A stretch of DNA of 64,000 nucleotides from an uncultured Ardenticatenaceae bacterium (GTDB lineage: Bacteria; Chloroflexota; Anaerolineae; Promineifilales; Promineifilaceae): the NCBI GenBank assembly GCA_964410625.1, contig CAYPHY010000009.1, positions 48,992 to 112,991 on the forward strand. The letters run 5' to 3'. Positions within the stretch are counted from its first letter, which is position 1. Each line of letters opens with the position of its first letter. Below the pieces are notes generated by a model. That model made no database searches. It saw nothing but the letters and a program-made list of their open reading frames with translations, and was not told the origin of the DNA. Position numbers and translations under genes: made by a program. Positions 1 through 64,000 of this stretch are shown here, one piece after another.

Positions 1-820
1 CCATCGGCCGCGCAAACGCCGCCACCACATCTGCTGGATAGCCTCGACCAACCAACGGGTCGAGATACCAACGGTTGATGTGGCCGTCGCCCATCCATGC
101 GGCCGCGCGGTCGGCCGGGCTGTGAGAAGCGGCAGTGAAGGGCGTGTAATTCAGCACCATGCCTACTTCGGCCCCAGGGCTGTTTTGGCGAATGATTGGC
201 ACAGCCATTCCATGCGCCAGCAACAAATGGTGCGCGGTCGCCAGCATCTCGTCCACATCTTGATGGCCCGGCGCATGATCACCGGTCAGATAGCCGAGCC
301 AGGCAATGACCCAGGGTTCGTTAAATGTTACCCACTTCTGGATGCGGTCTCCCAGTGTGCGCGTCACCAGCTCGCTATATTGGACAAAGGCCTCGGCCGT
401 GGCTCGTTGCGGCCAACCGCCCTCATCTTGTAAGACCTGGGGCAAGTCCCAATGATAAAGCGTCGCCATTGGTTCGATCCCTGCCTCCAACAGTGCGTCA
501 ACCAACCGGCTGTAAAAATCAAGCCCAGGTTCATTGACACGGCCGCGACCTGCGGGCAACACCCGTGGCCAGGCAATCGAGAAGCGGTATGCTGTTAGCC
601 CCAGCGCTTTCATCAAGTCAATGTCTTCCCGCCAGCGATGGTAATGCTCACAGGCGATGCTGCCCGTGTCGCCATTGAGCACCTTGCCCGGTGTATTCGA
701 GAAACGGTCCCAGATTGATTCGCCACGGCCGTCTTCTGTGCAAGCCCCTTCAATTTGATAGGAGGCAGTGGCCGCCCCCCAGAGAAAGTCTTCAGGAAAT
801 GTAAAGGTCGTTTGCTTCAT
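1..820 (-). CDS. Glycoside hydrolase family 1 beta-glucosidase, N-terminal ~273 codons (3' end lies beyond the window start)
   Basis: Absent from the ORF track because it runs off the edge. My minus-strand translation from the ATG (cat at 818-820) reads [26 protein letters not shown]...[10 protein letters not shown]...TLYHWDLPQ...WVTFNEPW. This contains the GH1 N-terminal signature and the TFNEP acid/base motif. An AAGGAGAGG RBS lies at 822-830. Confidence 0.9.
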
Positions 821-1057
821 ACCTCTCCTTGTCTGTTGGTATAGTGGTCAATTGGTATATTGGTTTACTGGTCTCCTGGTATAATTGAATTCACTCGTAC
901 AGTGATGGACTAGTGTGGATTAATATACCATCATCCCCATATACCTAGAGCGAAGTAGGGTAGCAGATTAGCGGCCATCACTCAAGCTATTGCTGCGGGT
1001 TGGTGTGGGTTGATGTGGGTTGGTATGGACGAGTGATTGTGATAAGATGATCGCACT

Positions 1058-1483
1058 ATGGCTACAAATACCATTCCTGAATCACATCTTGACTTAATCG
1101 CCGGACCGGTTCATGCGGTACTGACAACCATTTCCCCCAGCGGCAAGCCGGAGAACACGGTTGTCTGGTGCTCGTGGGACGGAGAGTATGTGTTAGTAAA
1201 CACGGCTGACGGCCGCCGCAAACCGGAAAACGTGCGCCATAATCCCTATGTGGCGTTGACGGCCGTTGACCCTGATGATCCTTACCGTTGGGTGGACGTG
1301 CGCGGGATTGTCTATGAGATTGTGGATGATCCCGATTACGCCAACATCAACGCCCATGCCAAGCTCTATACCGGACACGAGCAATATTATGGCGGCTATG
1401 CGCCGATTGAACGCAAAGGCACGGAGAAACGGATCATCTTTAAGATTAAGCCGGAGCGGGTGTTGGTCTATCCGCATCATTAG
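1058..1483 (+). CDS. Pyridoxamine 5'-phosphate oxidase-family (PPOX-class, flavin/F420-dependent-like) protein
   Basis: 141-aa [65 protein letters not shown] is typical of the split-barrel PNPOx-like family. Confidence 0.8.
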
Positions 1484-1619
1484 TGAAGTAGGCAGTAGTG
1501 AGTTGACAGTGGGCAGTTGACGGTAAGCAGTAGTTGTTTATGCTCCGGGCCGGCTGCCGACTGTGAGCGCTGTACTCAGCGCCGACTACCAAGCATTGTT
1601 CTCAATACCGCCAACTAAG

Positions 1620-2114
1620 ATGGACTATCAACTCGATGAACTAAAAACCGAGGATTGGCCCGCTGTGCGGGCGATTTATGAGGCGGGGATTGCCACCGGG
1701 CAGGCGACCTTTGAGACGGCCGTGCCTGCATGGGAGTCCTGGGACGCCGCACACCGCGCCGATTGCCGCCTGGTCGCCCGGCATGATGGCCAGGTCATTG
1801 GTTGGGCTGCGCTTAGCCCAGTCTCCAGCCGCTGTGTCTACGGCGGAGTGGCCGAAGTCAGCGTCTACGTTGATCCGGCGTGGAAAGGAAGAGGTGTGGG
1901 TAAGCGATTGTTGCAAGCCCTGGTCGCCGCTTCGGAGGAGGCTGGGTTGTGGACGTTGCAAGCGAGCATCTTCCCTGAAAATGTTGCCAGCGTGCGTCTA
2001 CATCACAATTGCGGCTTCCGCACTGTGGGAACGCGAGAGCGATTGGGACAACAGTATGGCCGCTGGCGCGACGTCGTTTTGCTAGAACGGCGTAGCAGCG
2101 TCGTGGGTGTATGA
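1620..2114 (+). CDS. GNAT N-acetyltransferase, phosphinothricin/methionine-sulfoximine acetyltransferase-like
   Basis: WPAVRAIYEAGIATGQATFET...VYGGVAEVSVYVDPAWKGRGVGKRLL...ASIFPENVASVRLHHNCGFRTVGTRERLGQQYGRWRDVVLLERR matches the PAT-type GNAT pattern. I prefer the ATG at 1620 over the GTG at 1563 given in the track. Confidence 0.85.
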   Translation: MDYQLDELKTEDWPAVRAIYEAGIATGQATFETAVPAWESWDAAHRADCRLVARHDGQVIGWAALSPVSSRCVYGGVAEVSVYVDPAWKGRGVGKRLLQALVAASEEAGLWTLQASIFPENVASVRLHHNCGFRTVGTRERLGQQYGRWRDVVLLERRSSVVGV

Positions 2115-2117: not shown

Positions 2118-3041
2118 GTGGAGGAAAAGAGAGTTGTCCAGGGACGGCCGTTCCTCAAATGGGCGGGGGGCAAGGCGCGGCTCTTGCCACAACTGGAAGC
2201 GTTGTTTCCGCCGGAGCTAAGCAACGGGGACATCCGCCGCTATGTGGAGCCGTTTGTTGGTAGTGGCGCCGTCTTTTTCCACATCGCCTCCTGCTATTCA
2301 ATTGAGGAGTTCCATCTGGCCGACGCCAATCCCGAATTGATCCTGCTCTATTGCACCATTCAGCAGGATGTAGAGGGCTTGATCGCCCAGTTGCAGCGTA
2401 TAGAACGGGATTACCGGTCGTTGACGGAGAACGGCCGCCACGATTATTACTATGCCGTTCGCCAGCAACTGAACAACCAACGAGCCACAACCGACTTCGG
2501 CAACTTCAGCCCGGCCTGGCTCGAACGGAGCGCTCAACTGCTCTTTCTCAACCGCACCGGCTACAATGGTCTTTTCCGCGTTAATGCCGCCGGCGAGTTT
2601 AATGTGCCGTTCGGCCGCTATAAAAACCCGACCATTTGCCAGCCGGAGCGACTGCGAACGGCCGCCCGCTTACTACAAAATGTGCAGATTCGACAGGCCC
2701 ATTTTGCTGAATGTGCCGACTTTGTAGACGAGCGCACATTTGTTTACTTTGATCCCCCCTACCGGCCGTTGAGCGCAACCGCCCATTTCACCGCTTATTC
2801 AACGCAGACCTTTGGCGACGACGAACAGCTTGAATTGGCAAGATTTTACTGGATGTTACACGGCCGCGGCGCCAAGTTGATGCTCAGCAATTCCGACCCA
2901 CAAAACACCGACCCCAACGACACCTTCTTTGAGCAGGCCTATGCTGGTTTTCGCCTGGAGCGCGTCCGGGCCAGCCGCCATATCAATAGCCAGCCAGACG
3001 GACGGGGGATGATCAATGAGCTGGTGATTTTGAATTGGTAA
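2118..3041 (+). CDS. Dam-family site-specific DNA (adenine-N6) methyltransferase (orphan)
   Basis: FLKWAGGKARLLPQL (SAM-binding N-terminus), NRTGYNGLFRVN and catalytic VYFDPPYRP motifs. No adjacent endonuclease gene. Confidence 0.9.
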   Translation: MEEKRVVQGRPFLKWAGGKARLLPQLEALFPPELSNGDIRRYVEPFVGSGAVFFHIASCYSIEEFHLADANPELILLYCTIQQDVEGLIAQLQRIERDYRSLTENGRHDYYYAVRQQLNNQRATTDFGNFSPAWLERSAQLLFLNRTGYNGLFRVNAAGEFNVPFGRYKNPTICQPERLRTAARLLQNVQIRQAHFAECADFVDERTFVYFDPPYRPLSATAHFTAYSTQTFGDDEQLELARFYWMLHGRGAKLMLSNSDPQNTDPNDTFFEQAYAGFRLERVRASRHINSQPDGRGMINELVILNW

Positions 3042-3050: not shown

Positions 3051-6000
3051 ATGGCTTCCCTGATTCACAAGCTGGCTAACCAATCTTGGGCGTGGCTCTT
3101 ACTGGCTACGGCTTATGGCTTACCGCTCACTTCTCCGCTGTGGCGGTTGACGGCCGTTCCCTGTACCCACGACGGCCATCTCCATTACCATCGAGTCGCC
3201 GCCATGCGCTATGCCTGGGAGCAGGGGGTCTATTTTACGCGCTGGCTGCCCGATCTCGCCTTTGGCTACGGCTACCCCTTCTTCGTCTATCGCGAACCCG
3301 CGCCGCTGTATATGGCCTTGTGGCCGCATCTCCTCGGCGTTCCCCTTCCGGCGGCCGAAAATCTCTTTTACGCGCTGACCATCCTCGCCTGTGGCTGGTT
3401 CATGTTTCTCTGGGCCAACGATCTCTTCGGCCGTCGCGCCGCCTTGGTCGCCGCCGTCGCCTATATGTCCGCCCCCTACGTATTAATAGACGCGCTGGTT
3501 CGTGGCAACGCGCCGGAGTCGTTGGCGTTGCCGCTGTTCCCATTTTTGTTGTGGAGCGGCCGCCGCTGGCTGCTCGGCCGCCAATCGCGCTACTTGATTG
3601 CCGGCGTTCTTGGCCTGGCCTTGCTTTCGTTTGGTCACAACATCTCCACACTGATTTTTGCGCCGACGTTATTGGTTTATTTGCTGGCCGTTGGCTGGAT
3701 CAACCGCTTGCCGGTGAAGGCAATTCTCGGCCGAGTGGCATTGCTGACGGGGCTAGGGTTGGGTGTCGCTTTTTTCTATACCGGTGGGGCTTTGCTGGAG
3801 ATGGACCAGGTGACGCTGCAACAGTCCACCACCACCCGCAACAACGATTGGCGTTATAACTTCGCCAGTGTGGGCGAAATTCTCGCTCCGGTGGCGGCCG
3901 AAGACCCCAACCTGATCAATCCACCGTTGCCCTTCCGCCTGGGTTGGGTCTCGTTAGGGTTGGCTTTGCTCGGTTCAACGGGACTGTTGTGGTTGAGAGG
4001 GCAGGACTCGACTGAGCGCGAACGTCGCTTGCATATTCTGTTGATGATTCTGGCAACAATCGGCTATTTATTCATGGCGTTGCCGCTATCACGGCCGCTA
4101 TGGGAAGCGTTGCCACTGATTGATTTTGTGCAGTTCCCCTGGCGGTTTGTCGGCCGGGCGGCGTTGCCGGTTGCTTTTCTGGCGGGCGTCCCTTTTAGCG
4201 AATCATTTGTGGAGCGATTTGCCAAATCGCTCTACATAGCTGGGACGCGGACGAACGCGGACAAACGCGGCGGTGAGCACCGTTGGGTAAATGGAGCAGT
4301 ACTGCTGGCGACAGTACTGCTAGTGGCGGAAACTTTGCCCAATCTTTACCCTGCCTATTGCCAGGAAGCGCCGTACCCGACGATCACGGATGTCCATACT
4401 TATGAGCGTGTGACCGGGCTGGTTGGGGTTGACCCGGAAGGGAGCTATTTCCCGCGTACTGTTCGGCAACGGCCGCAAGGCTCAGCCTTAGAAGGAGCGT
4501 ATGAGCGTGGGAGATTGCCGCAGCGGTTTGATGGGACGGTATTGCCGGAGGGGGCGGCGATTGAAAGGGTGGAGTACCAGCCGCTGTCGGCCGTCGTCGA
4601 GCTAAACACACCAACGCCTTTCACGGCGCGTTATTTGAGCTTTGCTTTCCCTGGTTGGCAGGCGGAGGTTGATGGGCAAGGGGTGACGATTACGCCCGGC
4701 GACCCCGATGGCTTGATAACCTTTCCCGTACCCGCTGGAGCGCATACCATCGCTGTACGTTGGACAGCGACCCCCCTGCGTATAGCCCTGAGTGGTGTGA
4801 GTGGGTTGGCATTGTTGCTGACCGTTGCTGCCGCTGTCTGGTTCTCCCGGCGGCCGTTAGCCAGTGTTGCCCCTGTTCCGCTAAGCCGTTCTTCACCTTC
4901 TTTCCTGGTTATCGCTTTCCTTATAGCTTTTGGTCTACTGGCTTTGAAGCTGTTGGTCATCGACCGCATGGATAACCCCTTGCGCCGCACCGGCTCTCCC
5001 GTCGTTGACCAATCAACCGCACTACAGGCGGGAGAACTGCGGCTGGATGGCTATCACTTGAGCCGCGCGAACGTCCCCGCAGGGGAGACGTTTGATATTG
5101 AACTGGCCTGGACGGCTGTCGCCCGGCCGCAAGCTGAGTACCAATCAGCCGTCTCCCTGGTTGGGCCGGAGGGACTGACCTGGAGCGACAAAGATATTGC
5201 ACGGCCGCGCATTTACGAAGACGCCGCGCCGACGCACTTTTGGGAGCCAGGGCAATGGGCCTGGGATAGCCACGAAGTGCCGGTCTTGGCCGGTACGCCA
5301 CCAGGGGTTTATGATATTGTCGTCACCCTCTTTGATCTGGAGACGCTCCAGCCATTGACCGTCGTTGACTTGAACGGTGGGACAGTTGGCCCCACGGCCG
5401 TCGTCGGCCAACTGGAAGTAACCAACCCTGTCGAGCCGCCACACTTTACCCCACAATATCCTTTGCCCGATGGTGGGGCGGCCGTTGCCGGATTGGAGAT
5501 GCGCTTGCTTGGCTATAATCAGGACCGCACCGAGGCGATCCCTGGCGATATTGTCTTGCTAACCCTCTTTTGGGAGCGAGAGGGGGAGGCGGCCGCTTCC
5601 TTTACTCTCAGTCTGCTTGATGAGGCGGGGCAAAGCGTGCACTCGTGGGAACTGCCAATCACGCGACCCGATTTTCCGCCAGAACAATGGACGGCCGACC
5701 AACGCCTGCGCGGCCAATACCTGGTGCGTCTCCCTGCTTCGTTGGCCGACGGCCGTTACCAATTTCTACTTCAGGATACGCTGCCGCTCGGCGAGCTGTC
5801 TGTCACTGCCCCTGAGCGTTTATTCTCTCCGCCACCAATTGAGACACCGTTGACGGCCGATTTCATTGAAGCTACCGAGCCTGTTATCCAGTTATCTGGC
5901 TATACGCTCACTTCCGTTGATAATTCACAATTGACAATTGACAATTCACAATTACTAACGCTTGTCTGGCAATCTTTGGCCGAAACCGAAACCAGTTACC

Positions 6001-7929: not shown

Positions 7930-8619
7930 TTAGCTAACTTCCGGTGTGAGTTGCTGGTAATAATTGCAGAGGTCTTTCAGCGGACAGATGGCGCAGTGGG
8001 GATTGCGGGCGCGGCAGATTTCGCGGCCGTGGCGGATCAAGTTGAGGTGCATCGGGTAAAAGGTCTCTGGATCGCCCATGGATTCGAGGATAGCGTGCGC
8101 TTTTTCGGCGCTGACACGCGGGCCGATCAGCCCCAGACGGCCGGTGACGCGATGGACATGGGTATCCACCGGAAAGGCGGGACGGCCGAAGGCGAAGAGC
8201 AGGATGATCGCCGCCGTCTTTGGCCCAATGCCGTCAATCGCCGTCAACCACGCTTTCGCTTCTTCCAACGGCAGTTCCATCAAAAAATCGAGGCTTAGTT
8301 CGCCGCGTGTCTCGTAGATATGGCGTAGTGCAGCCTGGATTCGTGGCCCCTTCTGGTTCGCCAACCCTGCCGAGCGTATCGTTGTCACGACATCGGCCGT
8401 TGGCGCATTCATCACTGCTTCCCAGGAAGGGAAACGTTCTTTCAAGGCGAAAAAGCCCTTATCACGGTTGATGTCAGAGGTAGATTGGGAGAGGATGGTG
8501 GAGACCAGTTCGTCTATCGGGGGGAGGTGCGGCCGCCAGGTTGGTTCGCCATACGTTTCCTTGAGGATTTGATAGACGGCCGCGTACTTTTCCACCGGTT
8601 CTAGTTGCAACGATTCCAT
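7930..8619 (-). CDS. nth: Endonuclease III-like HhH-GPD base-excision DNA glycosylase with a 4Fe-4S cluster
   Basis: Helix-hairpin-helix LTAIDGIGPKTAAIILLFAFGRPAFPVDTHVHRV and C-terminal CRARNPHCAICPLKDLC cysteine ligands. Confidence 0.9.
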   Translation of the reverse strand: MESLQLEPVEKYAAVYQILKETYGEPTWRPHLPPIDELVSTILSQSTSDINRDKGFFALKERFPSWEAVMNAPTADVVTTIRSAGLANQKGPRIQAALRHIYETRGELSLDFLMELPLEEAKAWLTAIDGIGPKTAAIILLFAFGRPAFPVDTHVHRVTGRLGLIGPRVSAEKAHAILESMGDPETFYPMHLNLIRHGREICRARNPHCAICPLKDLCNYYQQLTPEVS

Positions 8620-8697: not shown

Positions 8698-9016
8698 CCG
8701 GCTTCCACGACAGGGAGTTGTGACGCAAGGCGTCGAGTTGCTGCCAATGTTGGTTAATGGCAGCACGGCCGTCGGCGGTCAGTGCCACTTGTGTGTTCGG
8801 CTTCTTGCCGATGAACTGCTTCTCAATCTGTACCAGCTTCCCTTCCTCCAGCTTAGAGAGATGGCTGGAAAGGTTGCCCTTAGAAAGTCCAGTCAGCCGT
8901 TGCAAATAGAGGAAATCCGCGCTTTCACAGGCGGCGAGGGCGGTCATAATCGCCAACCGTGCCGGTTCATGGATCAGCTTGTTTAGATTCGCCAATTCTT
9001 CAAATAGTTCAGCCAT
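8693..9016 (-). CDS. Winged-helix transcriptional regulator (ArsR/HTH_34-like)
   Basis: 107 aa. HEPARLAIMTALAACESADFLYLQRLTGLSKGNLSSHLSKLEEGKLVQIEKQF is a classic wHTH. It overlaps the upstream membrane gene by 8 nt. Confidence 0.75.
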   Translation of the reverse strand: MAELFEELANLNKLIHEPARLAIMTALAACESADFLYLQRLTGLSKGNLSSHLSKLEEGKLVQIEKQFIGKKPNTQVALTADGRAAINQHWQQLDALRHNSLSWKPE

Positions 9017-9638
9017 TTTGCTCCCGTGAATTAAGCTGGAATGTGCGAACCAAAAGAATATGATCGAGGATACTGGTTAAAACAATCGCTGCCCCACCGG
9101 CAATAAAGAAAACGTCGCTGGCTACAAAAACATTTTCTGAAGATAGATTGAAAAACAGGGGTAGAAAGCCAATGCCAATGAACAGCAAGCCCGCCACTAT
9201 ATAGTACCAACGATAGCGCTGGGTGCGAACTCGCGCAAGGTACATTAGATACCCTCCAAATACAATGATAGCCAGGCCAACAGGCAAGCGCAGAAGGAGG
9301 TCGCCGATAACAGCAGCGAGGAACAAGACGATGAAAATTCTCCCTTCTCGTTCTTCTCGTTGCTGATCTTCCCAAGCGCGTCTGACCTTGCCAAAGCGAT
9401 TGCTATAGTATTGGCTGATTAGCCAATATAATCCACCAACCAGTAATAATCCCCATAGCGTCCAGGTACGGCCGATAACCGTTTGCTCCAACCAGGGGAA
9501 GTATCCAGCGTTATCCAGGCCCAAGAGGATAAAGTAGATGCCTAATGGCACAAACTTCAATCCTTGCAGTTGGTTATAGTTCTGGGTGACGTACTGTACA
9601 CGGTTCAAGTTCATCATATGTGACTCCTTTATCCACAA
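9009..9638 (-). CDS. Integral membrane protein (about 6 TM), paralog of 9685-10254
   Basis: 209-aa hydrophobic ORF. The N-terminus RVQYVTQNYNQLQGLKFVP parallels RMRYVTENYLNLQGLRWV of its neighbour. Both share the motif Y..QYG.V / YYSNRFGKV after TM2. Confidence 0.65.
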   Translation of the reverse strand: MWIKESHMMNLNRVQYVTQNYNQLQGLKFVPLGIYFILLGLDNAGYFPWLEQTVIGRTWTLWGLLLVGGLYWLISQYYSNRFGKVRRAWEDQQREEREGRIFIVLFLAAVIGDLLLRLPVGLAIIVFGGYLMYLARVRTQRYRWYYIVAGLLFIGIGFLPLFFNLSSENVFVASDVFFIAGGAAIVLTSILDHILLVRTFQLNSREQNG

Positions 9639-9684
9639 TCTACTGCATCTATAAGACGCTGTAGGTAGTATGGATACACTTAAC

Positions 9685-10254
9685 TCACTCTACTGGGTGC
9701 AGATTCCGGGCTAAAAATAGGTGATCAAACAAGCCGATGATGATCAAACTGATACCGGTGGTTAACCAAACGACAAAACCCGCTCGCAGGAAGGGAGTTG
9801 CTGGCGGAACAAGCAGCACAAGAGTGAAATCTAATGCGAAGACCAGCAGCGCGGCCGCCAGATAATGCCAACGATACGGCCGTCCCAGTTTCAAAAAGAG
9901 CAGCAAGATTCCGGCAGCAACGACAAGCGGCGCGATAAAAATGGGCGGGTGAAGCGTGCGATCAATCAAGAAGGAAGTCAACGCTGCGGCAAAGAGAATG
10001 CCAAATCGCCATAGCTCCACTTGTACATTAGCTGGCTGCTGCACATGACCGTACTGTTTGGTGTAGTAAGTCCCACTCCACCAAAAGAGAGCCAATGCCA
10101 GTGGTATGCCAACGATCAGTAAGGACAGGGTGGGGATTAGAGCGGCGTCTTCGGCCGCGACCAACAAACATAGCCCTCCCCAGCATACCCAGCGCAACCC
10201 TTGTAGGTTAAGATAGTTTTCCGTTACATAGCGCATCCGTCTCAGGTCTTGCAT
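9685..10254 (-). CDS. Integral membrane protein (about 6 TM), paralog of 9009-9638
   Basis: 189-aa hydrophobic ORF in the same orientation and probably the same operon as 9009-9638 and the wHTH regulator. Confidence 0.65.
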   Translation of the reverse strand: MQDLRRMRYVTENYLNLQGLRWVCWGGLCLLVAAEDAALIPTLSLLIVGIPLALALFWWSGTYYTKQYGHVQQPANVQVELWRFGILFAAALTSFLIDRTLHPPIFIAPLVVAAGILLLFLKLGRPYRWHYLAAALLVFALDFTLVLLVPPATPFLRAGFVVWLTTGISLIIIGLFDHLFLARNLHPVE

Positions 10255-10279
10255 TTTAATCTCTCCTTTTCTGGAAACT

Positions 10280-10357
10280 GGTTTGCATTACAAACCATAT
10301 ACCGCACATTATAGAAGGAATGATAGTTTTTGTCAAGAACCGGTTTGCAGCACAAAC
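10280..10357 (-). promoter_or_regulatory. Two copies of the palindrome GGTTTGCA-N-ACAAAC(C) upstream of the membrane-protein/wHTH operon (candidate operators)
   Basis: GGTTTGCATTACAAACC at 10280-10296 and GGTTTGCAGCACAAAC at 10342-10357, 62 nt apart. They lie 26-100 nt upstream of the start at 10254. Confidence 0.35.
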
Positions 10358-10414
10358 TTATGGATAATGTAATTTATGGTGGGCAATATAAAAGTTGACT
10401 CTGAGGAAAACGTG

Positions 10415-10828
10415 CTACTTCTTACTAACCTCAAACACGTTTGCTGACCGAAAGAAACACACATCAAATTCAGCGAAAAAATTCATCTGACCCAGAATCA
10501 AAGGAACTTGCTCAGCGTTAGTCCAAGCAAATGCAAGGCGTACGGGCTTAAACGGAGCAATGGTCGCTGTTAAGATAATCCCCCGTGCTTCAAAATGCGC
10601 CAAGTTGCCAGACAATTGAAGAGAGTATTGCTGTTGTTCCCAAACTGCGCCTAATTCAAGTCCAAGACGAAATGGAAGAACGCTAACGTCGGCTCCTGAA
10701 TCTAATAAGCCGGACACTGTTCGAGATTGATTCTGATATTGAAGTGTTAAGGGGAGTTGAGGTCGAAGGACAACTTCGCTATTCGGCTTTTGAATAGGAA
10801 CGTAAGGAAATTGAAGACGGTCAGCCAT
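10415..10828 (-). CDS. Retropepsin-like (clan AA) aspartic protease domain protein
   Basis: LLDSGADVSVLP contains the D-S-G-A active-site signature. I place the start at the ATG at 10828 (MADRLQFPY...), which overlaps the upstream ORF stop by 8 nt (ATGGCTGA). The gene is low-GC and has no CGGCCG. Confidence 0.7.
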   Translation of the reverse strand: MADRLQFPYVPIQKPNSEVVLRPQLPLTLQYQNQSRTVSGLLDSGADVSVLPFRLGLELGAVWEQQQYSLQLSGNLAHFEARGIILTATIAPFKPVRLAFAWTNAEQVPLILGQMNFFAEFDVCFFRSANVFEVSKK

Positions 10829-11033
10829 CTTTTGCCTTTTCATCATTAAGCATTTGCCACAGTGTTTGGGCAGCTTCTGGCGCATCGTATGGTGACCAAA
10901 CCTCATAAGTTGTTCCAGGTGTGAAGAAAGCTTCACTATCGAGCGCAAGGTCGTTGAGCAAAACTTGCATCACTCGCAGTTTGTCAACACGACTTAGCTT
11001 GTGTAGTGTCTTAAGAAGTTCAACTGAGACCAT
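10821..11033 (-). CDS. Small helical protein, partner of the retropepsin-like protease (antitoxin-like)
   Basis: 70-aa ORF, MVSVELLKTLHKLSRVDKLRVMQVLLNDLA..., translationally coupled to 10415-10828. Confidence 0.55.
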   Translation of the reverse strand: MVSVELLKTLHKLSRVDKLRVMQVLLNDLALDSEAFFTPGTTYEVWSPYDAPEAAQTLWQMLNDEKAKDG

Positions 11034-11168
11034 AGTTCCTCGCCCTCAGGATAGGAGGCTTACTTATGAATGATGTCATTCCGCTAGCCAGATTTCTGCA
11101 ACAGCTATGTGTCTAATTATATCACTAAATCGCCGCTTCTTCTCGTTTCGTATGATAGTCGCTATGAA

Positions 11169-49903: not shown

Positions 49904-49927
49904 TTGGTATAGAAATGTATGGTTTGG

Positions 49928-50032: not shown

Positions 50033-50043
50033 GGAGTTTCGCT

Positions 50044-50982: not shown

Positions 50983-51042
50983 GGTGGATTCAGGTGGATC
51001 GCGGCCGAATCAGGCAGAATGAATTCTGCCGCTGATACGGGA

Positions 51043-51061
51043 AACATGTTGAAAACATGTT
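51043..51061. promoter_or_regulatory. Direct repeat of the palindrome AACATGTT upstream of the amylase gene
   Basis: AACATGTT-gaa-AACATGTT, 27 nt upstream of the ATG at 51088. Preceded by the hairpin GGCAGAAT-ga-ATTCTGCC (51013-51030). Confidence 0.35.
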
Positions 51062-51087
51062 AACGGATGGAGCAATTGTAGCTGCTT

Positions 51088-53208: not shown

Positions 53209-53224
53209 GAAGCATAAATTCAAT

Positions 53225-53290
53225 CCACGAATCTACACGAATTTTCATGAACAGAAGCCAATATTCGTGTAGATTCGTGAGAATTCGTGG
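53225..53290. repeat. CACGAAT-family inverted-repeat element
   Basis: CCACGAATCTACACGAATTTTCATGAA, loop cagaagccaat, then ATTCGTGTAGATTCGTGAGAATTCGTGG. Confidence 0.85.
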
Positions 53291-53398
53291 ATCGCTTTAG
53301 GAGTTTTCACGGGCGAATGCACACCAAAAGCGGTGAAAATTGAGTTTATCAGCGTTTGTCCGCGTTCGTCCGCGTCCTATTTTCAGGAGAGAAAAGCC

Positions 53399-57400: not shown

Positions 57401-57909
57401 TCACACCCTATGTGCGTCAGGGTGACAATCTCATCGCGTTGCGACTGGTTGTCACCAATTCGACGGATGGACTGCTTGATCTGCTGAAGATCATGGGCGA
57501 CTTTAGCCTGATTCCCAAGGGGGACGGCACGTATCAAGTGGGGCTGCCGCGTACCACGATGCAGCCCTGCTCCTGGGCGGAGCAAGGGTATCCCTTTTAT
57601 TCCGGTTCGGCCGTCTATCGCCGACGCTTTCAACTACCCGCCTCATTCGCCGGACAGCGAGTCTTCTTACAGGCTCCGGTGCGGGATGATGTGTTGGAAG
57701 TGGTGGTCAATGGGCAGCCGGCGGCTGTGCGCCTCTGGCCGGAGTACGAAGTGGAAATCACCGACCAGCTACAACCCGGCGAAAACCTGTTGGAACTGCG
57801 GCTGACGAATACGTTAGTCAATTTGTTGGAAGGGGTGGAACGGCCGTCGGGTCTGTCGGCCGCGCCTTCACTAGTACCTTACCAACTATATATTTTCACA
57901 CCCTCGTAA
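54436..57909 (+). CDS. Large putative glycoside hydrolase (TIM-barrel-like N-terminal domain plus galactose-binding-like C-terminal domains)
   Basis: An ORF of about 1150 aa. YGILPFWFLNGELEPEEMRYQIREFYEKGMSGIILHGRFGL...WVYDEMNWPSG resembles rhamnosidase/GH-type barrels. The C-terminal domains resemble GH2-type sugar-binding jelly rolls. The family is not assignable by eye, and the start is uncertain (54406, 54436 or 54454). Confidence 0.6.
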   Translation: MALINRMTNILNQAEPTTENGRQQPQPWPKVPLSLHNFQRPPREYGILPFWFLNGELEPEEMRYQIREFYEKGMSGIILHGRFGLELPYIGETYLERIKLAVDEAQRIGFPTWVYDEMNWPSGTADKRVLKSRPDLVQRYIECINFTVRGPWFTYLTGEDSRYLDFERSTPLAAFAISQEGQVIDLTPNLSFGDVIPWEAPAGNWRLIYMVEKTADYYIDALNPESTAEFLRLGYEPYRDILDGQMSTQMLGFYTDEPAMHYYLTGGDNPIIPWTKDMFRRFQGRNGYNLRPFLPDLFFDIRPESARVRFDFYNSLTDFYSDAYYRQIHEWCREHNVLFTGHLLYEEWLRPLVRVEGNLFRHYEHFDVIGVDHLYPIIGNRDRPAEHVAMKVGSSAAHQLGSERLLCESFGGIFMDATMQRMKWITDWEYVLGVNLLNPHGYHYTLEGPRKRDWPPSMFYQYPWWRYFNEFSNYVSRLSHLLSGGRHVAKVAVLWPMQAMFANYTPQSHNQPGDRIEQDFNTLTDLLLRLHYDFDYLDEDFLAQAEIRDGRIHIRDEAYELLVLPPLTHIKISTLERLEQFAGQGGRLLATVFLPDRAFAAESGPEATIDISERIKKLFGVNPAESQQNFQQQYDLKVLWQGDNAAFVRSYALARQLPMRWQQRLGQPGRTESFAFTIESGQEGSQASRYFVTLPGNEREEITEEVNRERQAVADALQSALNGLLEPDVTISQPDIFYLHRVKDGQDIYFFVNPTFGELSAEVSISGDVQPMLWDPSMGDERPLVPSSVQDGRTRFSLHFPPTGSAFVLPQAGNGRRIIETNLRFDALGDGALTGYGRVEEGFVVVEQAGKRMRESVRGQSPVEPLLLDGEWEFEAENDNALVIGNWLAAQERPGTDWQAYALPDVDTADWLPMVPGAWSYQLPAEPDVPYPIPVWYRIHLPLDYLPPNMQLIVDGFAGSEWQLYVNGEAVTSPPQRSTFDSQMKAVDITPYVRQGDNLIALRLVVTNSTDGLLDLLKIMGDFSLIPKGDGTYQVGLPRTTMQPCSWAEQGYPFYSGSAVYRRRFQLPASFAGQRVFLQAPVRDDVLEVVVNGQPAAVRLWPEYEVEITDQLQPGENLLELRLTNTLVNLLEGVERPSGLSAAPSLVPYQLYIFTPS

Positions 57910-57927
57910 TAGAGTGCAGCATTTTTA

Positions 57928-58359
57928 TCAATCGCTGGTTTGATTTTCCAGTATCTTGAGGAACTCTCTTGGCGTTATGATTGAAATGTTTTCAAAGGGT
58001 GAGAGGACTAACAAGTCTACATCATTGCTAACGATGAAACTGGCTTTGCCACTGACCGCAGCCTCAAGAAATTTGTTGTCATCGGCATCGCGGCACACAG
58101 TGATCTGGCGCGTTGGTTCTATCCTCTCCCCACATAGACGAAGCGTGTGCAGGAACAGATGGCGATAATGCTCTGTCAGATGATATTTTTCTCGCAAATG
58201 GGGCCGGTTCAAAACGGCAACAAGTTCTTCTATTGCCTGGGTGCTATAAAGCAGCGTGAATGCACGGGCACGCATATACGACAGAATATGGCCAGCTTGG
58301 CCATAGGGTTTGGTGGCCGCGCTCACCGGTGCATTCGTATCAATAACGGCTCGAACCAC
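57928..58359 (-). CDS. PIN-domain toxin (VapC-like)
   Basis: MVRAVIDTNA (first acidic residue), ...DADDNKFLEAAVSGKASFIVSNDVDLL. Low GC and no CGGCCG. Confidence 0.8.
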   Translation of the reverse strand: MVRAVIDTNAPVSAATKPYGQAGHILSYMRARAFTLLYSTQAIEELVAVLNRPHLREKYHLTEHYRHLFLHTLRLCGERIEPTRQITVCRDADDNKFLEAAVSGKASFIVSNDVDLLVLSPFENISIITPREFLKILENQTSD

Positions 58360-58636
58360 GGCGTGTCTCAGCTATTGCCGTTGCTATGTCGGCTTCGACT
58401 TCAGTATCGGAATAAACAGCGTTTTGCTCATCTACTTGAGCAATTAGACGCTCAAACTCGGTCAACCATTCATCATCTTCTAGTTCCAACATGCGTTGGT
58501 ACACCTTATAAGGAATTAGCACTGCTTCCGGCTGGTTGTCGCGAGTTAAAACATAAGGGATAGTCTCTTGTGTGACCTCATTAAGAACAGACTTGAAGCG
58601 TTGCCGTAGTTCTTTCAGGCCAATGACTTTTTGCAT
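58340..58636 (-). CDS. Phd/YefM-type antitoxin
   Basis: MQKVIGLKELRQRFKSVLNEVTQETIPYVLTRDNQPEAVLIPYKVYQRM. The ATG at 58636 lies about 8 nt after GGGAGA. It overlaps the toxin gene by 20 nt. Confidence 0.75.
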   Translation of the reverse strand: MQKVIGLKELRQRFKSVLNEVTQETIPYVLTRDNQPEAVLIPYKVYQRMLELEDDEWLTEFERLIAQVDEQNAVYSDTEVEADIATAIAETRRGSSRY

Positions 58637-58778
58637 AAGCATCTCCCGATTCTGTTTTGATAGCACTTGTATTGTACCTCACATTGTGAAAGTGCGTATG
58701 GGTCTATGGATAGATAGCGGGCGAGTCTTTCTGGCTAGGCTACGAATTTGTCATAGATGTTTATCTGCCATCGCTGTG

Positions 58779-59675
58779 TTATATCATATATCCCCCGTTA
58801 GGTTGGTAAGCTCGGAAATAATCAATGACGAATCGTTGTGGATAGGAAAGAGTGTGCTGAATGGTATCGGCCGCCAAGGGGCGTTCGAAGATGTCTAGCA
58901 TGAACACCATTGGATAGTGAGGAGATTGCTGGATGGTCGTGATTTTGATGTTATCAACGTAGTAATCAATATGGGTAGGCGTCCATTCGGCCGCGTAAAT
59001 GTGGTACTGCGTTGCATCCATGTTCAATACCGGCTCATACCATTCATCGCGAATGGCGGGATCGCTCCAGGGGTGTACGCCGTGACCTATTTTTGAGCCG
59101 CTGGGGCCGACGTCTTTGCCAAAGATTTCACAGATGCAGATTTCGGCCGAATGCTCCGCTATCTCTTCATACCCAATCATCCACAGGGCGACATGATTGG
59201 CAATCCCTTCTGTTGCTTTGGCCCGCATTTCAAAGTAACCGTACTGCGGCGTATAGAGTTGGACGTTTGGCTGTGCTTCGCGCACCACACAGTCAGGATG
59301 AAAGCGGAGGAGACCGGCTTTGCTGCCCAACGGACCGGCAAATTCGCCCGTTTGAATAGAGGAGGCTTTGATCGCTCCATCAAATTCAGAACACCACGGT
59401 TGTTGATCGGCCGTAATTTGCAGGACCAGGTTGCCCTGCTCAAAGTAATAGTTAGCGGCCGATTGCGCCCTTGAACTCCAATGAGGTAGATAAAATGGCA
59501 GCCACTTATTCGTATCCAACAGTGGCCCATCAAATTCATCGTGGAATTCGAGCGTATACCCCGCTTTTTCCAAAGGGTTGGGTGGGCAATCACCGGTAGC
59601 AAAATCGCCGGAGAGTGGTTGAACAAGCATGACAGCCTCCATGAATTTAGGAAGTAGAGAACGCCATTTTAGCAA
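58779..59675 (-). CDS. GH16-like concanavalin-fold protein with a variant catalytic motif
   Basis: HVALWMIGYEE...SAEICICEIFGK aligns with the GH16 WPAFWMLG ... E-[ILV]-D-[IV]-x-E-xx-G pattern, but Cys replaces the central Asp. The start is uncertain. Confidence 0.6.
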   Translation of the reverse strand: MLKWRSLLPKFMEAVMLVQPLSGDFATGDCPPNPLEKAGYTLEFHDEFDGPLLDTNKWLPFYLPHWSSRAQSAANYYFEQGNLVLQITADQQPWCSEFDGAIKASSIQTGEFAGPLGSKAGLLRFHPDCVVREAQPNVQLYTPQYGYFEMRAKATEGIANHVALWMIGYEEIAEHSAEICICEIFGKDVGPSGSKIGHGVHPWSDPAIRDEWYEPVLNMDATQYHIYAAEWTPTHIDYYVDNIKITTIQQSPHYPMVFMLDIFERPLAADTIQHTLSYPQRFVIDYFRAYQPNGGYMI

Positions 59676-61371: not shown

Positions 61372-62775
61372 ATGCCTGTTGTGGATCGTCGTGAATTCGG
61401 CGGCCGTTTTGCCGTCAAGGAAAACTCGCGCCGTCTGGCAAACTATCGTTATCTGGAAATCCAACTGATGGAGATGATCGCCGGGTGGTGCCACACCACG
61501 CCGCAAATCGCCTTCAAGGCTACCTTTGGTTACCACGTCTACGATCACGCGCAGGCGGCCGATATGCTGGGTGAACGGCAAGAACAACTGCGCTCGGCAC
61601 GCGAACGCCAGGAACCGCCGACAGACGAATTTGCCAAGCTCTGCGAGCGCGTTTGGCATCTAAATTCAACGGTTGAGCGTTTAGTGGCTGTCTATCGCGT
61701 TCTCGAACCCCATCTGGTCAGTACCTATGTCTACCACGCCGACGCCACCGACCCGCTGGCCGATACGCCGACGGTGCGGATGTTGCGCCATCTGGCGGGG
61801 ATGGGCCAATCCCATCTGGCCTGGGGGCAGGCGATTTTGGAGGGGTTGACCCGCGAACCGGAAGCGCGGCGGCTGGCGCTGGATGTGCAGGCGGAGTTGG
61901 AAGCTGACCTGGTGGCCTGTGGCGGCGTAACCGGGCAGGGGATTGAGTCGCATTGGCTGGCTTTTCATAGCACACGGGCGGCCGATAAACCCAGCACACG
62001 GCCGCGACGGTGCGACTATCGCTTTGTCAAGCAATGCCCGCCGCTAGAGCATTCCATTGTCGAAGCCCCCTTCTGGTTCTCCGGCAACCCGGATGACTTT
62101 AGTAACGCCTATACCTCAGAAGATGAATGGTCACGCGAAGGCTACCGGCATAAGTTCCACCAACTGCTCTATGGCGAAGTAGAGACAACCGACCGGATGG
62201 GGAAGATGATCGCCGAATTTCCCGACCTGCCTTGGGAGATGCGGATGGAACTGGCGAACCAGATGTGGGACGAGGCGCGGCACATTGAGATCGTCGCCAA
62301 AGCGTGCGAGGAGGAGTTGGGGGCAGAGCTTGGCTATGGCCCCTGGCCGCTGGCCTGGTGGTGGATGCAGAACGAAAGCGATCCGTTGCGCCGTATCTCC
62401 GTCACCAATAGTTGGTCGGAAGCGAATTTGATGAGTACGCTGCGCCAGTGGCGCGAACATGCTGAAGAGCGCGGCTACAACCGGCTGGCCGAGCTATGCG
62501 ACTACCTCCAGGCGGACGAGTCCAATCACGTCAAGCTGGCGACGCGCTGGATACCGGCTTTGCTGAAGGATGAGCCGGAACGGATGAATGATTTGCTGGA
62601 GTGGAGCCGCGCGGCCGTTGCTCGCATCGAAGGCTTTTACGGTTCGGCCTATGGCGGCAATGGTCAGGAGAACGGCGCAGTCCAGCGCAAAGAACCGCGC
62701 TTTACCTTTGTGCGCGGCCGAGGGGAGGAGTCTCAATCTGACCGCTCCGAATTTAGCTATATCATTGGAGAATAA
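61372..62775 (+). CDS. Ferritin-like di-iron protein (DUF455-like), double length
   Basis: 467 aa from the ATG at 61372, after AAGGAG. E..H motifs WDEARHIEIV and ADESNHVKL lie in the C-terminal half. The N-terminal half is helical and looks like a degenerate duplicate. Confidence 0.6.
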   Translation: MPVVDRREFGGRFAVKENSRRLANYRYLEIQLMEMIAGWCHTTPQIAFKATFGYHVYDHAQAADMLGERQEQLRSARERQEPPTDEFAKLCERVWHLNSTVERLVAVYRVLEPHLVSTYVYHADATDPLADTPTVRMLRHLAGMGQSHLAWGQAILEGLTREPEARRLALDVQAELEADLVACGGVTGQGIESHWLAFHSTRAADKPSTRPRRCDYRFVKQCPPLEHSIVEAPFWFSGNPDDFSNAYTSEDEWSREGYRHKFHQLLYGEVETTDRMGKMIAEFPDLPWEMRMELANQMWDEARHIEIVAKACEEELGAELGYGPWPLAWWWMQNESDPLRRISVTNSWSEANLMSTLRQWREHAEERGYNRLAELCDYLQADESNHVKLATRWIPALLKDEPERMNDLLEWSRAAVARIEGFYGSAYGGNGQENGAVQRKEPRFTFVRGRGEESQSDRSEFSYIIGE

Positions 62776-62792
62776 AATTCATTTTAGTCCCT

Positions 62793-63491
62793 ATGTCTAA
62801 AGAAAGAATATTAGTACGTATAACACTTGTTGTGGCTGCGCTATTTGCTATTTCTGCAATCGTTGGTGCTGTTTTATCGTCTGGTTTCGCTTCAGCCGAA
62901 ACCTGGGCAGTGATTGCAGCTGCGTTAGCTGTAATTACTTCTACTATTTCGTCTTGGCCTGCCCAACGTGCCCTTGAGCTTCAGCAAGATCAACAGCTTC
63001 CATATCCTTATCCAACACTTGATATTAGGAGTAGGTATGGCTTAATGATGTTGCGGGTTACAAATTACGGCGAAAGTGTAGCCGTGGACATAAGGCTACG
63101 ATGGAACCGACCATTACTGAATGAAAAAGGTGAGTTAGTCCGCTTTACAGACCAAGAAGAAGCACCAGATATTCCGGCACTTCCACCAAATGAGAGTGTT
63201 GCAATTCTGATCGGAAGACCATTTATTCTCTTTGAAAAATACGAGGATATGAGCTATTCCGGTGAGGTTGAATTCAAAGACGCTTCTGGAAACAAAAGGA
63301 AGCATGCTTTTTATCTAAGTGCAGAGGCTTGGAGAAAATCACCAACTCATGACGAAGAGGAGTTAAAAACACACTACCAAATTCAAAAAATACCGGACGA
63401 GATAGGACGACTTCGGCGCGAACTAGAGTATATAAAATTCGCTCTTGGGGATTTGCAACCACAAGAACCAGACAGCGAAGAAACGGGTTAG
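62793..63491 (+). CDS. Hypothetical membrane protein (two N-terminal TM helices plus a soluble domain), low GC
   Basis: 232-aa ORF. It is markedly AT-richer than its neighbours and has no CGGCCG. No motif recognised. Confidence 0.5.
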   Translation: MSKERILVRITLVVAALFAISAIVGAVLSSGFASAETWAVIAAALAVITSTISSWPAQRALELQQDQQLPYPYPTLDIRSRYGLMMLRVTNYGESVAVDIRLRWNRPLLNEKGELVRFTDQEEAPDIPALPPNESVAILIGRPFILFEKYEDMSYSGEVEFKDASGNKRKHAFYLSAEAWRKSPTHDEEELKTHYQIQKIPDEIGRLRRELEYIKFALGDLQPQEPDSEETG

Positions 63492-63511
63492 ATTTGGCTA
63501 ATGGAGAATAA

Positions 63512-64000
63512 TTGGCAACAGACGAGATCGCACAGGCTGTAGCTGAGCTTTGCAGGCAGCGACCAGACCTCAATTGCCGTACCATTGAGTCTGTCTTGAC
63601 GCTTTCCCTGGAGATTAAACGCGAGGGCCGGGAAGGGCGCAATATCGGCACGCTGTTTGTGGTTGCCGATACGGAAGAAACGCTGAAGCGCTCGAAGAGC
63701 CTGATCCTCGACCCGCTTTGGTACCATCCCGACGAGCATAAGCATATTGATGATCCCAACTTGCGGGAAACGTTAAAAGAGCTGGCACAGATGGATGGCG
63801 CGTTTATTGTTGCTGACAGTGGGACTGTCCTTTCTGCCTGCCGTTATATCAATGTGTCGGCCGAAGGGGTGGAACTGCCTCTGGGGCTTGGCAGTCGTCA
63901 TATGGCGGCCGCGTCCATCACCCGGCAAACAAAGGCGGTGGCTTTTGTCTGCTCCGAAAGCAGAGTCGTACGCATCTTTAACCAAGGCAAAATTGTCGCC
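63512..64000 (+). CDS. DisA_N/DAC-domain protein (putative diadenylate cyclase), 3' end beyond the window
   Basis: Absent from the ORF track because it runs off the edge. My translation from the TTG at 63512: MATDEIAQAVAELCRQ...GRNIGTLFVVAD...LAQMDGAFIVADSGTVLSACRYI...LGLGSRHMAAASIT.... It carries the DGA and (G/S)RH..A signatures of DAC domains. Confidence 0.75.
   Translation, partial: MATDEIAQAVAELCRQRPDLNCRTIESVLTLSLEIKREGREGRNIGTLFVVADTEETLKRSKSLILDPLWYHPDEHKHIDDPNLRETLKELAQMDGAFIVADSGTVLSACRYINVSAEGVELPLGLGSRHMAAASITRQTKAVAFVCSESRVVRIFNQGKIVA

Follow-up and report, generated by a model that had tools for sequence, protein, structure and literature searches.

The hexamer CGGCCG is the dominant DNA word of the 64,000-nt stretch analysed here (the window), and its over-representation is genuine. 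A directional pressure on essentially all long-resident DNA drives convertible sequences to CGGCCG, acting on synonymous sites first, on non-coding DNA too and, to a small degree, on amino-acid choices. The best reading is a HIP-type signature, comparable to HIP1 (GCGATCGC) of cyanobacteria, that arises from pressure on all resident DNA and probably from methylation-linked biased repair. In particular, we assign a probability of about 45% to the reading that CGGCCG is the HIP of a Chloroflexota lineage, under pressure from a putative solitary cytosine methyltransferase combined with methylation-aware repair or conversion.

CGGCCG is the top hexamer of the window by more than 2-fold; the runners-up have at most 124 copies, and every one of them overlaps CGGCCG. 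Its copies are distributed as follows.

1 to 64,000, unstranded: the CGGCCG (DCGGCCGH) set, 285 copies, with 258 within 48 called coding sequences and 28 scored as non-coding.

This count (4.45 per kb, or one copy per 225 nt) compares with expectations of 27.8 from base composition, 35.7 from a first-order Markov model and 100.5 from a third-order Markov model. A synonymous shuffle of the 48 coding sequences, retaining each protein and its codon usage, yields 65.4 ± 7.0 copies (observed/expected ratio, O/E, of 3.95; z = 27), and a codon-order shuffle yields 40.3 (O/E 6.4). The excess is present in all three reading frames (53, 130 and 75 copies observed versus 10.7, 34.6 and 20.2 expected) and reaches 13-fold in non-coding DNA (28 versus 2.1). 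Moreover, 258 of the 433 compatible amino-acid contexts (60%) carry CGGCCG, where codon usage predicts 58, and the RP and GR dipeptides are 20 to 35% more frequent than in motif-free genomes; pressure on a DNA word can be strong enough to skew dipeptide composition. The preliminary description of this DNA, which had proposed a hyper-abundant, HIP1-like CGGCCG enriched by an order of magnitude across all frames and between genes, is borne out by these counts: the excess is 10-fold over composition (285 versus 28) and 4-fold over the synonymous shuffle, and in the window it persists under codon-shuffled and higher-order Markov nulls (258 versus 65 coding copies). Its local tallies are exact (5 copies in 1-600, 6 in 12001-12600, 4 in 40501-41100 and 4 in a terminase stretch considered below); its GC content of about 58% is revised to a measured 55.1%.

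The unit itself is short. The base 5′ of CGGCCG is A at a frequency of.36, G at.31, T at.24 and C at.09, and the A...T flank bias noted earlier is therefore a tendency only. The octamer ACGGCCGT stands at 21 times its expectation in the window, but its 29 copies are no commoner than the 36 predicted from the hexamer and independent flank preferences, which rules it out as the true unit and leaves DCGGCCGH as the unit of this genome. No sequence information is present past ±1, and CGGCCG is therefore not a repeat element; a dispersed repeat of the REP or MITE type, with its long and mostly intergenic unit, is ruled out by these uninformative flanks and by the coding location of about 90% of the copies. 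Two individual sites illustrate local arrangements.

38475 to 38486: two abutting copies, CGGCCGCGGCCG, within a small plus-strand ORF.
37691 to 37727: an intergenic terminator-like hairpin, whose arms contain CGGCCA and CGGCCG, kept in the relative L081.

The hairpin had been placed near 37691 from the outset and is present there; a search against Rfam found no known RNA families in the window. The metagenomic loci densest in ACGGCCGT (10 to 18 per kb) were set aside as a separate phenomenon, consisting of satellite-like GTACACGGCCGT repeats in which six frames are open.

CGGCCG enrichment is a lineage trait of Ardenticatenales/Promineifilaceae-type Chloroflexota. Relatives were placed by LeuRS, using a single-protein NJ tree that is poorly resolved.

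35061 to 37622, minus strand: leuS, with 15 CGGCCG copies in 15 of 25 possible contexts; the basis of both ortholog comparison and placement.

Most of the nearest LeuRS relatives have a CGGCCG excess (O/E 4.6 to 13.8), and outgroups with similar or higher GC have an O/E of about 1. The flanks of CGGCCG vary by lineage, leading to different octamers: the top octamer of the relatives is ACGGCCGT, GCGGCCGC or CCGGCCGG, at 10 to 130 times its expectation and up to one per 430 nt, and ACGGCCGT is the unit in several of them. L003 (4.44-Mb contig CBDCVS010000003.1) exemplifies the ACGGCCGT type, L015 the GCGGCCGC type and L011 the CCGGCCGG type. Further, one relative nested among the CGGCCG carriers (L008) has GCCGGC (92/17) in place of CGGCCG, and GCCGGC is enriched in another (L010). 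Across leuS orthologs, 252 motif positions are shared, where independent filling of shared contexts predicts 224; such near independence fits a per-site drive better than a position-specific function. Between the window and L081, which are about 87-88% identical, motif bases are 95.6% conserved versus 88.2% for their surroundings. In one gene, 35 of 39 and 36 of 38 codons within motifs are identical, compared to 77% outside them; codons of matching type reach 79-80% (P = 0.003-0.09). Two further protein searches for more DNA of the 87%-identity relative gave best matches of only 75-82% identity, and of the source contig itself only an identical 4.4-kb Logan contig was found.

The density of CGGCCG had also been proposed to separate native from foreign DNA, on the basis of four stretches without the motif and a sparse terminase island. 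Our comparison used a codon-aware occupancy, defined as the share of compatible amino-acid contexts that carry CGGCCG, for the following stretches (strand given where assigned).

28386 to 31070: motif-free stretch of 46% GC in a TPR-repeat (TPR/STAND) gene (28685-31429, minus strand); 1 of 11 contexts, P = 8e-4.
31071 to 34251: G-rich, C-poor terminase island; 5 CGGCCG copies.
31999 to 32382: terminase small-subunit-like ORF within the terminase island.
32429 to 34162: terminase large-subunit-like ORF within the terminase island.
10158 to 11224: motif-free stretch of 44% GC adjoining an Eco57I-like N6 methyltransferase; 0 of 1 contexts, too short and with too few compatible contexts to judge alone.
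57870 to 58867: motif-free stretch with a PIN toxin / Phd antitoxin pair (57928-58666, minus strand); none of 3 contexts, without significance on its own.
62720 to 63857: motif-free low-GC stretch with a membrane ORF (62793-63491, plus strand); 0 of 7 contexts in the ORF, P = 0.0018.
49172 to 51001: motif-free native stretch with two ABC sugar-transporter permease genes, ordered as in relatives; 3 compatible contexts.

Each of the four stretches indeed has 0 copies, and the foreign-island reading is supported by the under-occupied TPR/STAND gene, terminase-like ORF (4 of 18 contexts, P = 1.4e-3) and membrane ORF. As a general marker, however, density is less dependable: the three empty stretches of about 1 kb are uninformative alone, none of them reaching significance once corrected for composition (P 0.22-0.33); the native permease stretch is empty as well, because its amino-acid composition leaves almost no compatible contexts; and adapted phage genes appear host-like. 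The terminase island is sparse by its 4-copy count and by the occupancy of its ORF, but it is not depleted once composition is corrected for (5 copies observed versus 5.8 expected). Synteny with L081 stops at 34252, exactly at the edge of this island, and no relatives of the window's terminase were found in IMG/VR.

In IMG/VR contigs, phage genes for portal, terminase and tail proteins have CGGCCG occupancies of 37-52%, compared to 0-22% for three window genes. These differences imply that the pressure follows residence in the cell, and not gene function. Because clade-adapted phage genes carry CGGCCG, the absence of the motif indicates recent arrival from outside the clade rather than mobile DNA as such; conversion to CGGCCG has yet to reach DNA that is new to the clade. 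Occupancy is a codon-aware way to date the arrival of genes, and it could help decide whether a phage contig or a metagenomic fragment belongs with this host clade. An active EagI-type restriction target, for which site avoidance is predicted, is rejected, since CGGCCG is instead enriched in both host and phage contigs.

Three genes of the window encode enzymes that bear on the mechanism.

2118 to 3041, plus strand: solitary Dam-family (D12) methyltransferase, with 6 CGGCCG copies of its own.
11169 to 12974, minus strand: Eco57I-like N6-adenine methyltransferase, with an NPPY motif and 13 CGGCCG copies.
7930 to 8619: EndoIII-family Fe-S glycosylase, nearest to Deinococcus EndoIII-1 (172-175 bits), with Mig (1KEA) at 46 bits.

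D12 enzymes can be GGCC-specific. The Dam-family enzyme of the window looks GATC-specific from its residues, keeping K9, Y119, N120, L122, R124, P134, R137 and Y138 of E. coli Dam; with all GATC-contact residues conserved, it is ruled out as the CGGCCG methyltransferase. The Eco57I-like N6 enzyme cannot modify CGGCCG, because the site has no A, and its 13 motif copies make its gene native-like. Motif scans found no cytosine-C5 or N4 methyltransferase motifs in the window, the 80 leuS loci or the motif-rich viral and metagenomic loci, and scans for C5, N4 and N6 motifs in all fetched loci gave nothing relevant to CGGCCG; a missing cytosine methyltransferase is weak evidence here, because the scans covered very little of any one genome. 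About 20 other palindromes are almost wholly avoided (including GCGCGC, GCCGGC, GGCGCC, CCGCGG, GGGCCC and CCCGGG), which implies that the genome's word content responds strongly to restriction-modification enzymes. The enriched words match known type II restriction-modification targets (EagI, CGGCCG; NotI, GCGGCCGC; EaeI, YGGCCR; NaeI, GCCGGC).

In the mechanism that we favour, a putative solitary cytosine methyltransferase of the restriction-modification type would recognise CGGCCG or its GGCC core, and its coupling to methylation-aware mismatch repair or gene conversion would favour the methylatable site, as Elhai proposed for HIPs. The G-meC dinucleotide that this model needs would arise if the inner C were methylated, and shifts in enzyme specificity may have led to the lineage octamers ACGGCCGT, GCGGCCGC and CCGGCCGG and to the replacement by GCCGGC. 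Each alternate HIP in cyanobacteria is accompanied by a matching methyltransferase (PMC4390886), a pairing that supports, by inference, a methylation link here. However, a CGGCCG density of 4.5 per kb is well over the saturation of about 1 per kb predicted by Elhai's model, which counts against the mechanism. The lack of a depleted C-to-T variant (see below), the apparent conservation of motif bases and the GATC-type residues of the window's one solitary methyltransferase weigh in the same direction, as does, weakly, the lack of cytosine methyltransferase motifs in the scanned DNA.

Selection for a DNA-level function that requires many copies would offer another explanation, with CGGCCG acting as a transformation uptake or recombination signal, as a Chi-like self-protection against a helicase-nuclease, or as a nucleoid-protein site. 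We consider it unlikely overall, though well worth weighing. The apparent conservation of motif bases and codons above background between the window and L081 agrees with it, and the same conservation pattern at HIP1 was read as selection, not neutral replenishment (Xu et al. 2018). The trait is maintained over the whole clade, its spacing in native DNA is slightly evener than random (CV 0.82), HIP1 has been tied to transformation in recent preprints, and phages that need host survival carry CGGCCG, as expected of a self-mark. However, the 60% filling of synonymous opportunities and the accompanying dipeptide shift far exceed what a density-dependent function needs, and ortholog positions are near-independent given their amino-acid context. 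The uptake and Chi signals known elsewhere either exceed CGGCCG in length or are asymmetric with a defined strand orientation, and no competence or recombination gene was found linked to CGGCCG here.

Very-short-patch repair, where a Vsr- or Mig-like enzyme restores T:G to C:G at a C5-methylated cytosine of CGGCCG, is a known route to the enrichment of methyltransferase targets (Dcm/Vsr), but we regard it as improbable in this case. The window's glycosylase belongs to the EndoIII family, which includes the T:G glycosylase Mig.Mth; its low Mig score beside that of EndoIII-1 nonetheless rules it out as a Mig-type T:G repair enzyme. Compared to the synonymous shuffle, the one-off C-to-T variants are found at ratios of 1.01 (TGGCCG), 1.07 (CGGCTG) and 0.97 (CGGTCG), all commoner than the transversion variants (0.48-0.78). 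Because no C-to-T variant is specifically depleted, there is no classical single-position T:G repair signature; moreover, the motif scan detected no C5-methyltransferase signature in the window, and the E. coli effect is far below 60% occupancy. An indirect effect of composition, through codon usage, proteome dipeptides or the avoidance of other GC-rich palindromes, has very little probability. CGGCCG is built from Ala, Gly, Arg and Pro codons, its density correlates with GC (Spearman 0.47), and the GC-rich palindromes named above are avoided; the synonymous shuffle falls far short of the observed count all the same, and adding palindrome-avoidance constraints raises it only to 67 ± 7.5. The 13-fold non-coding excess and the outgroups of similar or higher GC with an O/E of about 1 argue in the same direction. 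As far as these nulls are adequate, the synonymous and codon-order shuffles rule out a codon or dipeptide artefact, and the constrained shuffle rules out a by-product of avoiding about 20 palindromes.

A broader form of the HIP reading is more tentative than the one that we favour: an independent HIP system in Ardenticatenales/Promineifilaceae, which has switched several times (DCGGCCGH, ACGGCCGT, GCGGCCGC, CCGGCCGG/YGGCCR, GCCGGC), fills most synonymous sites, reshapes dipeptides and is shared with phages. If true, the system would be driven by repair or serve as a self-mark, and the protein machinery behind HIPs generally could be sought through the natural experiments that its repeated switches provide.

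The likeness to HIP1 holds on all features tested (a top GC-rich palindrome, in all frames, with no longer repeat, clade-wide) and extends to the variant palindromes of sub-lineages. HIP1 too is short, palindromic and rich in GC, and no word of equal length is more abundant; throughout its lineage there is a copy roughly every 200-1000 nt, in all frames and in intergenic DNA. HIP1 sites are conserved somewhat above the surrounding synonymous sites, as the one gene compared here suggests for CGGCCG. The HIP1 octamer is 15-300 times over-represented, at about 0.5-2.5 per kb, and HIPs have been described as periodically spaced over 10-90 kb. In contrast, HIP1 belongs to cyanobacteria and has a CGATCG core, a word nearly missing from coding DNA here (1 copy versus 25 expected). 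Here the iterated word is a loosely flanked hexamer, octamer units being confined to relatives; and HIP1 has known GATC and CGATCG methyltransferases, where the CGGCCG counterpart is putative. The alternate cyanobacterial HIPs include GGCGCC (Calothrix PCC 7103), rCCGGy/GCCGGC (Oscillatoria PCC 10802), GCsGC, GGGATCCC and TCGATCGA (Elhai 2015). Like CGGCCG, they are hexamer-level palindromes with O/E above 10 that supplant the usual palindrome in single lineages, all have a GC step able to carry G-meC, and GCCGGC is the same word as in L008 (replacement) and L010 (enriched). They are found, however, in sporadic single strains with an identified methyltransferase, in contrast to a whole clade with a putative enzyme.

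Other lineage-specific words are less similar. The DUS of Neisseria, the USS of Haemophilus and Chi are also dense short words that tell self DNA from foreign and are lacking in recent acquisitions, but they are 5-12 nt long, non-palindromic, orientation-dependent and much less saturated; CGGCCG cannot show their strand orientation, because it is its own reverse complement. In E. coli, Dcm methylation together with Vsr very-short-patch repair enriches CCWGG. This best-understood route, where biased mismatch correction over-represents a methyltransferase target, has a small effect with a depleted T-variant, compared to a very large effect with no depleted variant here. A literature search, with most subscription journals outside its reach, found nothing relevant on an over-representation of CGGCCG or ACGGCCGT; in the searchable literature, HIPs are otherwise described only in cyanobacteria, and CGGCCG is best read as a second, independent case. 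For about thirty years, the debate over where HIP1 comes from and what it does has drawn its evidence from cyanobacteria (PMC4390886, PMC5861425). With a different core and lineage variants, the proposed causes, including a cognate methyltransferase, a methyl-directed repair nuclease and competence genes, become testable by their co-variation with the palindrome, both between the two phyla and from switch to switch inside this clade.

The palindrome CGGCCG occurs 285 times in the 64,000 nt of the window (once per 225 nt, at a GC content of 55.1%), compared to 27.8 copies expected from base composition, 35.7 from a first-order Markov model and 100.5 from a third-order one. It ranks first among the window's hexamers, more than 2-fold above the next, and every runner-up overlaps it. 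The local counts and the four motif-free stretches of a preliminary description were exact on recount; its GC content of about 58% was measured here as 55%, and the octamer ACGGCCGT, at 29 copies in the window, does not exceed the 36 predicted from its sub-words. The 5′ flanking base is A (.36), G (.31), T (.24) or C (.09), and the flanks carry no information beyond ±1; the unit here is therefore DCGGCCGH, a hexamer with loose flanks, and not part of a longer repeat. By composition, TGATCA ranks second among the window's over-represented palindromes (31 versus 12), paralleling its excess in picocyanobacteria (Elhai).

The excess withstands codon-aware correction. Across 48 genes, taken as longest ORFs under a simple rule and checked against codon-position GC, 258 copies are observed versus 65.4 ± 7.0 after synonymous shuffling within genes (O/E 3.95, z 27) and 40.3 after codon-order shuffling. 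Each reading frame is enriched 3.7- to 5-fold, as the claim of occurrence in all frames implied, and DNA scored as non-coding holds 28 copies versus 2.1 expected, a few of them in small missed ORFs. The motif can be encoded without protein change in Arg-Pro, [S/T/P/A]-Ala-[D/E/V/A/G] and x-Gly-Arg contexts; 258 of these 433 compatible contexts (60%) are filled, versus 58 expected from codon usage. For example, CGG-CCG spells 53 of 80 Arg-Pro pairs, with CGG making up only 25% of Arg codons. Moreover, amino-acid order itself appears slightly shifted by this pressure: in CGGCCG-rich genomes, dipeptide O/E is 1.15-1.23 for Arg-Pro and 1.35-1.49 for Gly-Arg, versus 0.97-0.99 and 0.98-1.12 in nested, outgroup and other-phylum loci.

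About 20 other palindromic and related words, CCCGAG and GAGCCC among them, are almost wholly avoided in coding DNA under the synonymous-shuffle null.

Palindromes avoided in the window's coding DNA (observed versus expected, synonymous shuffle)
GCGCGC, 1 versus 28.7
CGATCG, 1 versus 25
CTGCAG, 1 versus 18
TCCGGA, 1 versus 20
GGGCCC, 0 versus 14
GCCGGC, 5 versus 40
CAGCTG, 2 versus 25
CCCGGG, 2 versus 21
TGGCCA, 7 versus 26
GAGCTC, 1 versus 13
GCATGC, 1 versus 12.7

The sets of avoided words are partly different in relatives, and the avoidance suggests long-standing contact with numerous restriction systems. CGGCCG could then be a mere left-over palindrome; this explanation is rejected because CGGCCG reaches only 67.2 ± 7.5 copies even when a synonymous shuffle keeps 22 avoided words as rare as observed.

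The nearest LeuRS relatives in a species-representative genome set (61-67% identity, best tblastn segment) are all Chloroflexota MAGs, labelled Ardenticatenia, Ardenticatenaceae, Promineifilaceae or Anaerolineae. In the loci of 11 of these nearest relatives CGGCCG is the commonest hexamer, and it ranks second or third in two others (L002, L015), with O/E of 4.6-13.8 across these 13. It is enriched only 2.5-fold in a locus of 66% GC (L001), and its O/E is about 1 in loci of other Chloroflexota and other phyla. On a poorly resolved single-protein NJ tree the CGGCCG-rich genomes form one group, within which two relatives without the enrichment (L008, L016) are nested. L008 carries 92 copies of GCCGGC versus 17 expected, the same word that the window avoids. 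Flanks differ among lineages: ACGGCCGT leads the octamers of L003, L004, L005, L009 and L014 and ranks second in L002, at 60-130 times expectation and a density of up to one per 430 nt; in L015 the dominant form is GCGGCCGC (52 copies versus 0.69 expected); and CCGGCCGG is the commonest palindromic octamer in L006, L007, L011 and L013 (10-22x), three of which also abound in TGGCCA. Further, several Riflebacteria loci and 'Ca. Zhuqueibacter' (L021, L025, L030, L035, L039, L041, L010) have GCCGGC as their most over-represented palindromic hexamer, at O/E 4-5. Published work may understate how widespread moderate enrichment of palindromes is.

In IMG/VR, a pattern scan turned up contigs in which ACGGCCGT reaches about 65-150 times expectation; one encodes homologues of portal, large terminase and head protease (L094), and another a tape-measure protein and a minor tail protein (L088). 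The motif occupancy of these phage contigs is 0.37-0.52; because they carry the signature, it follows residence in the host clade and not chromosomal function. The pressure probably extends to whatever DNA is replicated in these cells. Six metagenome contigs (L150, L173, L172, L147, L135, L219) contain ACGGCCGT at 10-18 copies per kb, in L150 within a degenerate, satellite-like repeat (GTACACGGCCGT...) with all six frames open; such dense repeats are unrelated to the genome-wide signature.

Motif absence had been proposed to mark foreign DNA. This is only partly borne out: three genes are under-occupied, the ~1-kb stretches are uninformative on their own, and a native permease stretch is also empty.

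Occupancy of compatible contexts in candidate foreign genes
28685-31429, TPR gene: 1 of 11 filled (P=8e-4)
32429-34162, terminase-like ORF: 4 of 18 filled (P=1.4e-3)
62793-63491, ORF: 0 of 7 filled (P=1.8e-3)
PIN toxin: 0 of 3 filled, uninformative
10415-10948, ORF: 0 of 1 filled, uninformative

In a composition-corrected Poisson test with a native enrichment factor of 9.5, the TPR stretch is depleted (P=0.022), three motif-free stretches of ~1 kb give P values of 0.22-0.33 each, and the four low-GC stretches pooled hold 0 copies versus 7.7 expected (P ~5e-4, by arithmetic from the Poisson expectation). The C-poor terminase island holds 5 versus 5.8 expected, which is no depletion. Positions 49172-51001 are equally motif-empty (P=0.011); density alone is a false positive there, because its two ABC permeases are ordered as in relatives and offer only three compatible contexts.

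The terminase island (31071-34251) is G-rich and C-poor (GC skew 0.41-0.56 in 2-kb windows), with ORFs resembling terminase small and large subunits (PHROG E 8e-8 and 8e-10); a scarcity of stop codons lets several long ORFs overlap on both its strands. IMG/VR yielded no relative of it. The alignment with L081, a close relative from Logan assemblies, stops at window position 34252, right at the edge of the island, which supports a putative rearrangement or insertion there. Adjoining the island, 34252-34620 holds two end remnants (83-87% identity) of a CopG/beta-lactamase-domain gene, of which L081 has an intact copy (3215-4315); ~875 nt are missing in the window.

Across 13 leuS orthologs there are 252 motif co-occurrences, close to the 224 predicted if each genome filled its compatible contexts independently. 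L081/L082 are closer (88.4% nucleotide identity in leuS), with the same DCGGCCGH profile and 12 of 15 leuS sites in common. In leuS, motif bases are 95.6% identical between them and the window, versus 88.2% elsewhere. Where the amino acid is the same, 35/39 and 36/38 codons within motifs are identical, versus 77% outside (P 0.036 and 0.003; one gene) and 79-80% for the same codon types outside (P 0.089 and 0.016; one gene). These data from a single gene weakly suggest maintenance of the motif, and at 60% saturation selection and per-site drive are inseparable. Upstream of leuS, a ~340-nt leader (37623-37963, minus strand) is 92% identical to L081, above leuS itself, with two hairpins resembling terminators and a promoter-like TTGACA...TGCTAATCT; it has no Rfam match even at E<=1, and may be an attenuator or T-box-like leader not yet described.

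Two methyltransferases are encoded in the window.

2118-3041, Dam-family D12 methyltransferase, solitary, keeping all checked E. coli Dam GATC-contact residues
11169-12974, Eco57I-like N6-adenine methyltransferase

Neither can explain CGGCCG, an A-free cytosine site. No C5 or N4 methyltransferase motifs were found in any locus scanned, a tiny share of any one genome. An EndoIII-like glycosylase (7930-8619), considered as the T:G glycosylase Mig, instead resembles Deinococcus EndoIII-1. The Eco57I-like enzyme has a partial, below-cutoff match to MAD2, the MADS defence methyltransferase; three ORFs beside it, one low-GC and motif-free, have no Pfam, NCBIfam or PHROG match, and 9009-12974 may be a defence island.

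Overall, the enrichment is clade-wide, codon-independent and near-saturating, for a restriction-site-like palindrome with lineage-specific flanks that resident phages carry too and that some genes of recent arrival lack. The most plausible source of the pressure would be a solitary cytosine methyltransferase linked to mismatch repair or conversion that senses methylation, the coupling that Elhai's model proposes for HIPs (PMC4390886); if the inner C were methylated, it would provide the G-meC step on which the model depends. Under the synonymous-shuffle null, transversion neighbours of CGGCCG stand at 0.48-0.78 of expectation, and none of the three transition variants shows position-specific depletion of a C-to-T product (TGGCCG 1.01, CGGCTG 1.07, CGGTCG 0.97). 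The classical very-short-patch repair signature at one methylated cytosine is thus absent. That absence, a density above 1 per kb and the motif's mild conservation make selection for a function at the DNA level a real possibility. A 4,444-nt contig in SRR11702770 (L083, Logan) is 100% identical to window 48931-53374 and therefore represents the same strain, making that dataset useful for read-level population or methylation analysis.

The preliminary HIP1-like reading is borne out in that CGGCCG fits highly iterated palindromes (HIPs) on every criterion that the data could decide, namely rank, over-representation, independence of coding, lack of a longer repeat unit and lineage-wide occurrence with variants, and the relatives' octamer enrichments fall inside the 15- to 300-fold range reported for HIP1 (PMC5861425). 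No description of a CGGCCG-type HIP was found in the literature searched, most subscription journals being outside its reach; given this and the matching criteria, CGGCCG is filed as a HIP in a new phylum. It is not HIP1, whose CGATCG core is avoided here. Among Elhai's cyanobacterial alternate HIPs are the hexamer GGCGCC and rCCGGy/GCCGGC; CGGCCG is not one of them.
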